A stretch of DNA of 63,785 nucleotides, filler included, from Schmidtea nova (taxonomy: Eukaryota): NCBI GenBank assembly GCA_044892505.1. It is 6 parts of 3 records of this genome, joined end to end, with 100 filler letters (N's around TTAATTAATTAA, not from the genome) between each part and the next. Parts side by side here need not be neighbours in the genome. Positions count along the whole stretch, not along the records: positions 19,060 to 33,898 come from CM097882.1; 5 more parts are not named here. One strand, 5' to 3'. Both the position numbers and the translations under genes were made by a program. Below, one piece after another: positions 21,258 through 22,343 of the stretch; within the stretch, counting starts at the first letter, position 1, and each line of letters begins with the position of its first letter. The notes under the pieces were generated by a model. That model saw nothing but the letters and a program-made list of their open reading frames with translations, was not told the DNA's origin and did no database searches.

Positions 21258-22343
21258 ATGAAGAAAATCATGAAAAATATAAAAACGATATGGACAAACC
21301 CAAAAGATCCCGATGGTTTTGGTTCAGTCAAAAAATTAGCAAAAAGAATAAAAAGTTCAAAGAATGAAACTCAGAAATGGCTATCTGATCAATTGGCATA
21401 TAGTTTAAATAAACCAATGTTGAAAAGATTTCCTACACGGAAATATAAAACTTTTGGGGGTACCGATTTATGGCAAATGGATTTAATGGAAATGATTCCT
21501 TATTCTAAAATTAACAAGGGTTACAAATATATTTTGACTTGTATTGATGTTTTTAGCCGTTATGCACGAGCTATTCCAACAAAAACTAAATCTGCTAATG
21601 AAATGGCTGAGGCTATTGAATCTTTATTTAAAGATGGGAAGCCACGTAATTTACAAACTGATTTGGGTAATAAATTAAATTTTTAAAAATTAATTAATTT
21701 TAATTTAGGAAAAGAGTTTTATAACAGCAAAGTAAAAGAAGTGATCAAAGGAATCAATCATTATTCTGTATTTTCTCAATTCAAAGCTGCTCATGTTGAA
21801 AGATTTAATCGTACTTTAAGAGATCGTTTGAAAAAGTATTTTGTGTATCAAGGTAACAAAACATGGATAAATGTTTTACCGAAAATTATTTCCAGTTACA
21901 ATCGATCACCGCATTCGGGATTAAATAAAATGAAACCTATCGATGTATATTCAAATAATAATTTTGACGGATGGATAAAAGATAGATTAAAATCAATTAA
22001 TAAAAAACCGAAATATAAAGTAGGTGATTATGTGAGAATGAGTAAAATCAGTGCTTCTCCCTTCATCAAAAATTTTGATAGTAATTGGAGTGATGAAGTA
22101 TATCAAATCTCAAATGTTGATACTAATCAAAATCCTGTCATGTATGCTATTTCCGATCATGAAAACAATGTAATCGAGGGGAAATTCTACGAACAAGAAC
22201 TTCAAGTTATTCCAGCTCCCACAGTTTTTAGAATTCAAAAGATTTTAAAAACCAAAACTGATGGGAAATATAAACAATATTACGTTAAATGGCATGGCTA
22301 TGAAACTCCAAGTTGGATATCTGAAAAACAATTGATTAAATAA
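21258..22343 (+). CDS. Polinton retroviral-like integrase with C-terminal chromodomain; join(21258..21666,21709..22343), 347 aa
   Basis: WQMDL, ILTCIDVFSRYA, LQTDLG|KEFYN (restored by a 42-nt GT-AG intron), VERFNRTL, YYVKWHGY. Confidence 0.92.

Follow-up and report, generated by a model that had tools for sequence, protein, structure and literature searches.

A short, probably spliceosomal intron interrupts the catalytic core of a planarian Polinton integrase gene

The integrase gene of a Polinton in the planarian Schmidtea nova is interrupted, just past the second catalytic Asp, by a 42-nt GT..AG segment (21667-21708) that carries an in-frame stop codon. The segment is best explained, with good confidence, as an ordinary, constitutively spliced U2-type intron that would have been gained once and kept while the lineage multiplied in its animal host, and that it is spliced at all we regard as very likely. 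The intron reading is supported because the segment has no counterpart in the conserved protein, shows the size and composition of host introns, tolerates frame-breaking indels in other copies, and lies at the point where the nearest relatives are also broken.

Intact animal Mavericks, described as lacking introns, are usually annotated by ORF. Under that approach a high-copy lineage whose integrase core holds a stable intron in all members would pass for broken, and active elements may be undercounted. An intron at this place points to nuclear, host-spliced expression and to long residence in hosts with tiny introns, and horizontal spread may thereby narrow to hosts able to splice introns of 42 nt. 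It would also provide a simple RNA marker, a single junction, for where and when the integrase is made. The surprise is moderate unless regulation is demonstrated, as introns in DDE transposases are otherwise ordinary.

The element lies in a window of 63,785 nucleotides (filler included; assembly GCA_044892505.1), in which 100-nt linkers connect a series of contigs. The contig at 19060-33898 holds a TBP-like gene, an ATPase, a protein-X-like ORF, the integrase, a cut putative minor capsid ORF, a protease and a PolB-like gene, a gene order common to loci L001, L006 and L007; the ends of the Polinton coincide with contig edges. The TBP-like gene (19463-19945, minus strand; PF00352, E 7e-17; mirror copy at 25518-26000, plus strand) is also found in L006, L007 and L015 at 42-50% identity. 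The A32-like packaging ATPase (20005-20628, plus strand), which has no intron, matches PF04665 (E 1.1e-06) and is 56-76% identical to its counterparts in the loci, and the adenovirus-type cysteine protease (27193-27558, plus strand), with its 5' end in low-quality homopolymer sequence, matches PF00770 (E 3.4e-06), both above cut-off. A small ORF resembling adenovirus protein X (20866-21195, plus strand) is conserved in the loci and matches PF05829 below cut-off (E 2e-04). The ORF at 22349-22756 (plus strand) matches the N-terminus of a 340-381-aa ORF that follows the integrase in the loci, and from this gene order we take it to be a minor capsid gene; between it and the protease the contig contains no ORF of major-capsid size. 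The gene at 29641-33618 (plus strand) we presume, from its motifs, to encode a protein-primed PolB. A second copy, at 57082-61311, shares 70% identity with it, and each of the two carries an Endonuclease_7-like domain below cut-off, which was the only match, with no Pfam polymerase among them, when the first was searched against profiles. An in-frame stop at 33037-33039 divides this first gene into two parts that both match the polymerase-sized ORF of L007 at 50%.

The contig is further marked by a fold-back at 19060-26403, whose arms (19060-22717 and 22746-26403, 3658 nt each) differ by 3 mismatches and are separated by a 28-nt spacer. Its first arm begins at the contig edge and its tip cuts the putative minor capsid gene; the structure is likely an amplification or assembly artefact. 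It also supplies a mirror copy of the integrase (23120-24205, minus strand), with the intron copy at 23755-23796. The copy as assembled is defective, since it combines the PolB stop, the 3.66-kb fold-back and a cut capsid module, and the intron question therefore has to be answered at the level of the family.

The integrase ORFs on either side of the stop, 21258-21686 and 21687-22343, share one frame. Removal of the 42 nt leaves exon 1 (21258-21666, plus strand; 136 codons and 1 nt, ending in phase 1, one base into a Gly codon), which bears the first and second catalytic Asp and matches PF00665 (rve, E 2.8e-08, above cut-off), and exon 2 (21709-22343, plus strand), which bears the catalytic Glu and a C-terminal chromodomain, with rve_3 and Chromo matches below cut-off. 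Neither exon is interrupted, and their identity to the best homologue is 69%; both Asp residues and the Glu align with the homologues, and with X in place of the stop the gene reads as a Polinton-type integrase, with an rve core and a chromodomain at the C-terminus. No relative of the integrase was found among viral contigs, where 8 pattern matches yielded 0 integrases by tblastn, and no solved structure matched it by sequence.

Read directly, the segment on the plus strand has a GTAAG-like donor and a YAG acceptor and contains TAA at 21684-21686. These ends, the absence of the segment from the conserved protein and the in-frame joining of the exons fit a U2-type intron. Among 11 registers of 42 nt compatible with the homologous motif, only 21667-21708 reads GT..AG, but these termini by themselves say little because the target codons already supply GT (and AG). 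Composition is more distinctive: G+C is 2 of 42 (5%), against a minimum of 6 across 962 windows of 42 nt in the integrase exons. Within the window, the segment had no repeat-family matches other than low-complexity AT (family D16). Reassignment of stop codons was considered and set aside, since TAA, TAG and TGA all terminate ORFs in the window.

Alignment to intronless Polinton integrases, a check that the initial annotation had proposed, bore out the 42-nt segment that it described. In the best 120 homologues (47-72% identity) the 14 codons are missing without exception, and the finding that would have told against an intron, a 14-residue insertion lacking a stop, occurs in none of them. The distance from the second Asp to the E of the E-F motif is 17 residues in the read-through gene versus 3 in all 120. 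Since this set consists by design of full-length, unbroken ORFs, what it establishes is that the 14 codons do not belong to the protein; it gives no measure of how rare introns are. Of 38 metagenomic loci compared as DNA, 32 extend to the intron site, and all 32 are uninterrupted there. The joined exons place the second Asp and the Glu 31 residues apart, compared with 33 in 119 homologues and 34 in the remaining one. An 87%-alike contig from the family data (X2 record 13) has no extra gap in this region, and the shorter spacing appears to be a family trait; given the two missing residues, the spliced integrase is only putatively active.

The closest relatives break off at the same place. An exon-1 query gave 41 matches, of which the best two, P0241 (82%) and P0242 (77%), stop at the intron site, ending in D-L-G-N and D-L-G-K-I-I-I, respectively; P0282, which is from a different source and has 10 of 159 residues different, shares the ending of P0242, all three being compared as protein only. 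By comparison, 27 of the 32 motif-bearing matches run on normally, and P0244 jumps to a C-terminal peptide. Two short matches, P0245 and P0265, also stop at the site, but their ends may be contig ends and they were left out of the tree. That tree covers the exon-1 region only, with 51 rows: the window, 38 of P0001-P0040 (P0034 and P0036 were too short) and 12 of the 41 short matches. The window, P0241 and P0242 form one side of a branch with support of 90/93, below the tool's starred threshold, and the window and P0241 group at 97/92. The pattern would fit a single intron gain, kept across about 20% protein divergence.

Variation among family copies was drawn from four contig sets of one study, representing at most 3 samples and contigs of a kind that is not stated, mapped to the mirror arm. 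At a likeness of at least 80%, 4,681-15,443 records aligned per run, which indicates a large, diverged family. Contigs from all four runs cover the 42-nt segment. Twelve of 14 indels are listed, and the two that lie in the integrase gene (+1 at 23759 and +5 at 23781) both fall inside the 42 nt and break the frame, compared with none in 1044 exon nt; AT-rich tracts are indel-prone, intron or not, and non-autonomous copies can be multiplied in trans. The +1 form is the one carried across the segment by X2 record 13, whose depth is 324 versus 2.8-7.7 for the other seven X2 records listed. At the fifth intron position (row 23792), every one of the four runs has the canonical G, at 85-99.8% of its summed depth. 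Among the 15 joints listed of 270 in these contig sets of unstated kind, none skips the 42 nt and none changes strand at the fold-back tip.

In size and composition the segment resembles introns of the host. The likeness in size to calpain introns of 41 and 43 nt, pointed out in the initial annotation, stands: the first (46999-47039, plus strand) separates PF00648 positions 1-32 from 33-76, and the second (54986-55028, plus strand) separates positions 83-104 from 105-139, so that adjacent profile positions are parted in both cases by a segment that looks like the one in the integrase. The presence of the calpain genes in the same window is not biological evidence, because they lie on another linker-joined contig. 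The host stomatin (169-1161) and Vps45 (37547-39214) genes are single unbroken ORFs, unlike the calpain fragments. The Vps45 protein points to an animal host: its nearest named relatives, at 45-48%, come from molluscs, annelids and other spiralians, and three unnamed proteins reach 81-92%.

Two further genes of this Polinton contain another four candidate phase-1 introns, of 45-53 nt; these and the two in the second Polinton contig rest on frame logic without homologues. One, of 47 nt (19371-19417, minus strand; GTAAGT..TTTAG), would put the ATG at 19427 in frame with a Cys-rich ORF. The other three (28530-28579, 28643-28695 and 28768-28812; 45-53 nt) lie in a gene upstream of PolB (28514-29040, plus strand), the exons of which stay open. 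The second Polinton contig has two candidate phase-1 introns in 55719-56096, upstream of the second PolB, which likewise keep the frame open. Both 28514-29040 and 55719-56096 would be multi-exon genes with internal repeats just upstream of PolB. An R-x-K or R-K motif followed by a donor-like site (29041 and, in the second element, 56097) closes each of them, and a convincing acceptor was found for neither site. Directly after the PolB stop codon, at 33620-33673, is a 54-nt AT-rich GT..AG segment, possibly a 3' UTR intron.

Other explanations of the segment have to be set against an ordinary intron. The segment could be translated, with the stop read through or recoded and 14 residues inserted, or it could be an assembly error; its length, a multiple of three, and the other artefact-like features of the contig would suit such accounts. 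TAA, however, terminates the integrase, TBP-like, protease and stomatin ORFs and is a true stop; the frame is lost in the +1 and +5 variants, contigs of four runs cover the segment, and no insertion is present at the site in any of the 120 homologues. On these comparisons both accounts appear largely refuted, and we give them hardly any weight. The segment could also be an AT-rich insertion that inactivated the gene and duplicated a short stretch of its target, within a dead subfamily that is non-autonomous and mobilized in trans. This would account for the defects of the assembled copy (the PolB stop, the fold-back and the cut capsid module), and the target codons alone could supply both GT and AG. 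Such an insertion does not readily explain why the break is common to relatives that are 77-82% identical and retain an open exon 1, why the listed indels hit the segment but spare the exons while the G at the fifth position is retained, or why both exons remain open at 69% identity to the best homologue. We judge it improbable, if less so than translation of the segment or misassembly.

The alternative with the most in its favor, although still an unlikely one, is that the segment is an intron of a regulated kind, comparable to IVS3 of the P element, in which the host limits splicing by tissue or through piRNA, and retention or use of an upstream donor yields an inactive or repressing integrase. 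The segment sits inside the catalytic core and bears a stop; moreover, an in-frame word resembling a donor precedes it by 21 nt (21646-21651, plus strand), and use of that word would remove the second Asp. There is a precedent in P-element IVS3, as described in the available sections of PMC7776569, and planarian Polintons are piRNA targets according to those of PMC8532177. On the other hand, the canonical donor is present in most of the family depth, size and composition are those of ordinary host introns, with similar introns in other genes of the element, and GTAA occurs 6 times in the 1044 nt of exon, which makes chance a possible source of the upstream word. A P-element-like switch, by which the host would decide by tissue or piRNA and so separate integration from replication of a virus-like element, seems slightly less likely again. 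The initial annotation had offered a possible control point between integration and a lytic or latent state. Nothing in the analysis supports that suggestion: the segment resembles ordinary short host introns, similar introns sit in other element genes, and a lytic or latent cycle is hypothetical for this element. Its reading of a spliceosomal intron is strengthened by the homologues, the family variation, the relatives broken at the site and the host style of the segment. Its corollary, that integrase production depends on host splicing, would hold if the intron is spliced.

Under the preferred reading of an ordinary, constitutive intron, the element would be transcribed in the nucleus by host RNA polymerase II, and the spliceosome would remove the 42 nt as it does any short host intron, giving a full integrase with its chromodomain. 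Unspliced RNA would encode a 142-aa fragment that lacks the catalytic Glu and is probably degraded. The gain probably took place where the Gly-Lys codons dictate a proto-splice site, and an insertion or a short duplication of the target may have produced it. Of 21 distinct homologous sites, 10 read G|GTAA and 3 read AG|GT, which suggests gain by one of these two routes.

The element compares closely with animal Polintons/Mavericks of the adintovirus type, which (PMC8097293, PMC8502044) likewise have an rve integrase with chromodomain, an A32-like ATPase, an adenovirus-type protease and a gene resembling PolB. One figure legend of PMC8502044 includes the label TBP. According to the consulted portion of PMC8097293, no introns interrupt the genes in 134 intact vertebrate Mavericks, whereas here the integrase and two accessory genes have candidate short introns. 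Dinoflagellate eupolintoviruses bear introners, some in coding regions, and so likewise hold spliceosomal-type introns inside Polinton-like elements; those are copies of introner transposons in protists, as far as the accessible part of PMC12166617 describes them, in contrast to a short AT-rich, host-style intron in an animal. Ginger1 elements have Gypsy-integrase-like DDE genes with 1-4 mostly GT-AG introns (PMC2836005, in part), which indicates that introns in integrase-type transposases are ordinary. Ginger1 is a simple cut-and-paste element without PolB, ATPase, protease or capsids, and in this the Polinton genes differ. P-element IVS3 is likewise a stop-containing intron whose retention truncates the transposase; its regulation and the 66-kDa repressor were proven by experiment, in the account given by the sections seen of PMC7776569, while for the Polinton intron such regulation is hypothetical. 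Among the papers searched, none describes an animal Polinton whose integrase gene holds a spliceosomal intron, though Repbase entries and supplements may contain such cases, and the portions available of PMC12220804, PMC10748475, PMC11296320, PMC6431247 and PMC8502044 hold nothing on spliceosomal introns in these elements.

Several other mobile elements are present in the window. From their translations, we take 4417-8732 (minus strand) to be a non-LTR retrotransposon, 9900-14701 (minus strand) a Gypsy-like LTR element, 34228-35124 (minus strand) a hAT-like transposase and 53380-53975 (plus strand) a fragment of a Merlin-like transposase. A tandem array of AT-rich units of about 165 nt occupies 47627-48867.
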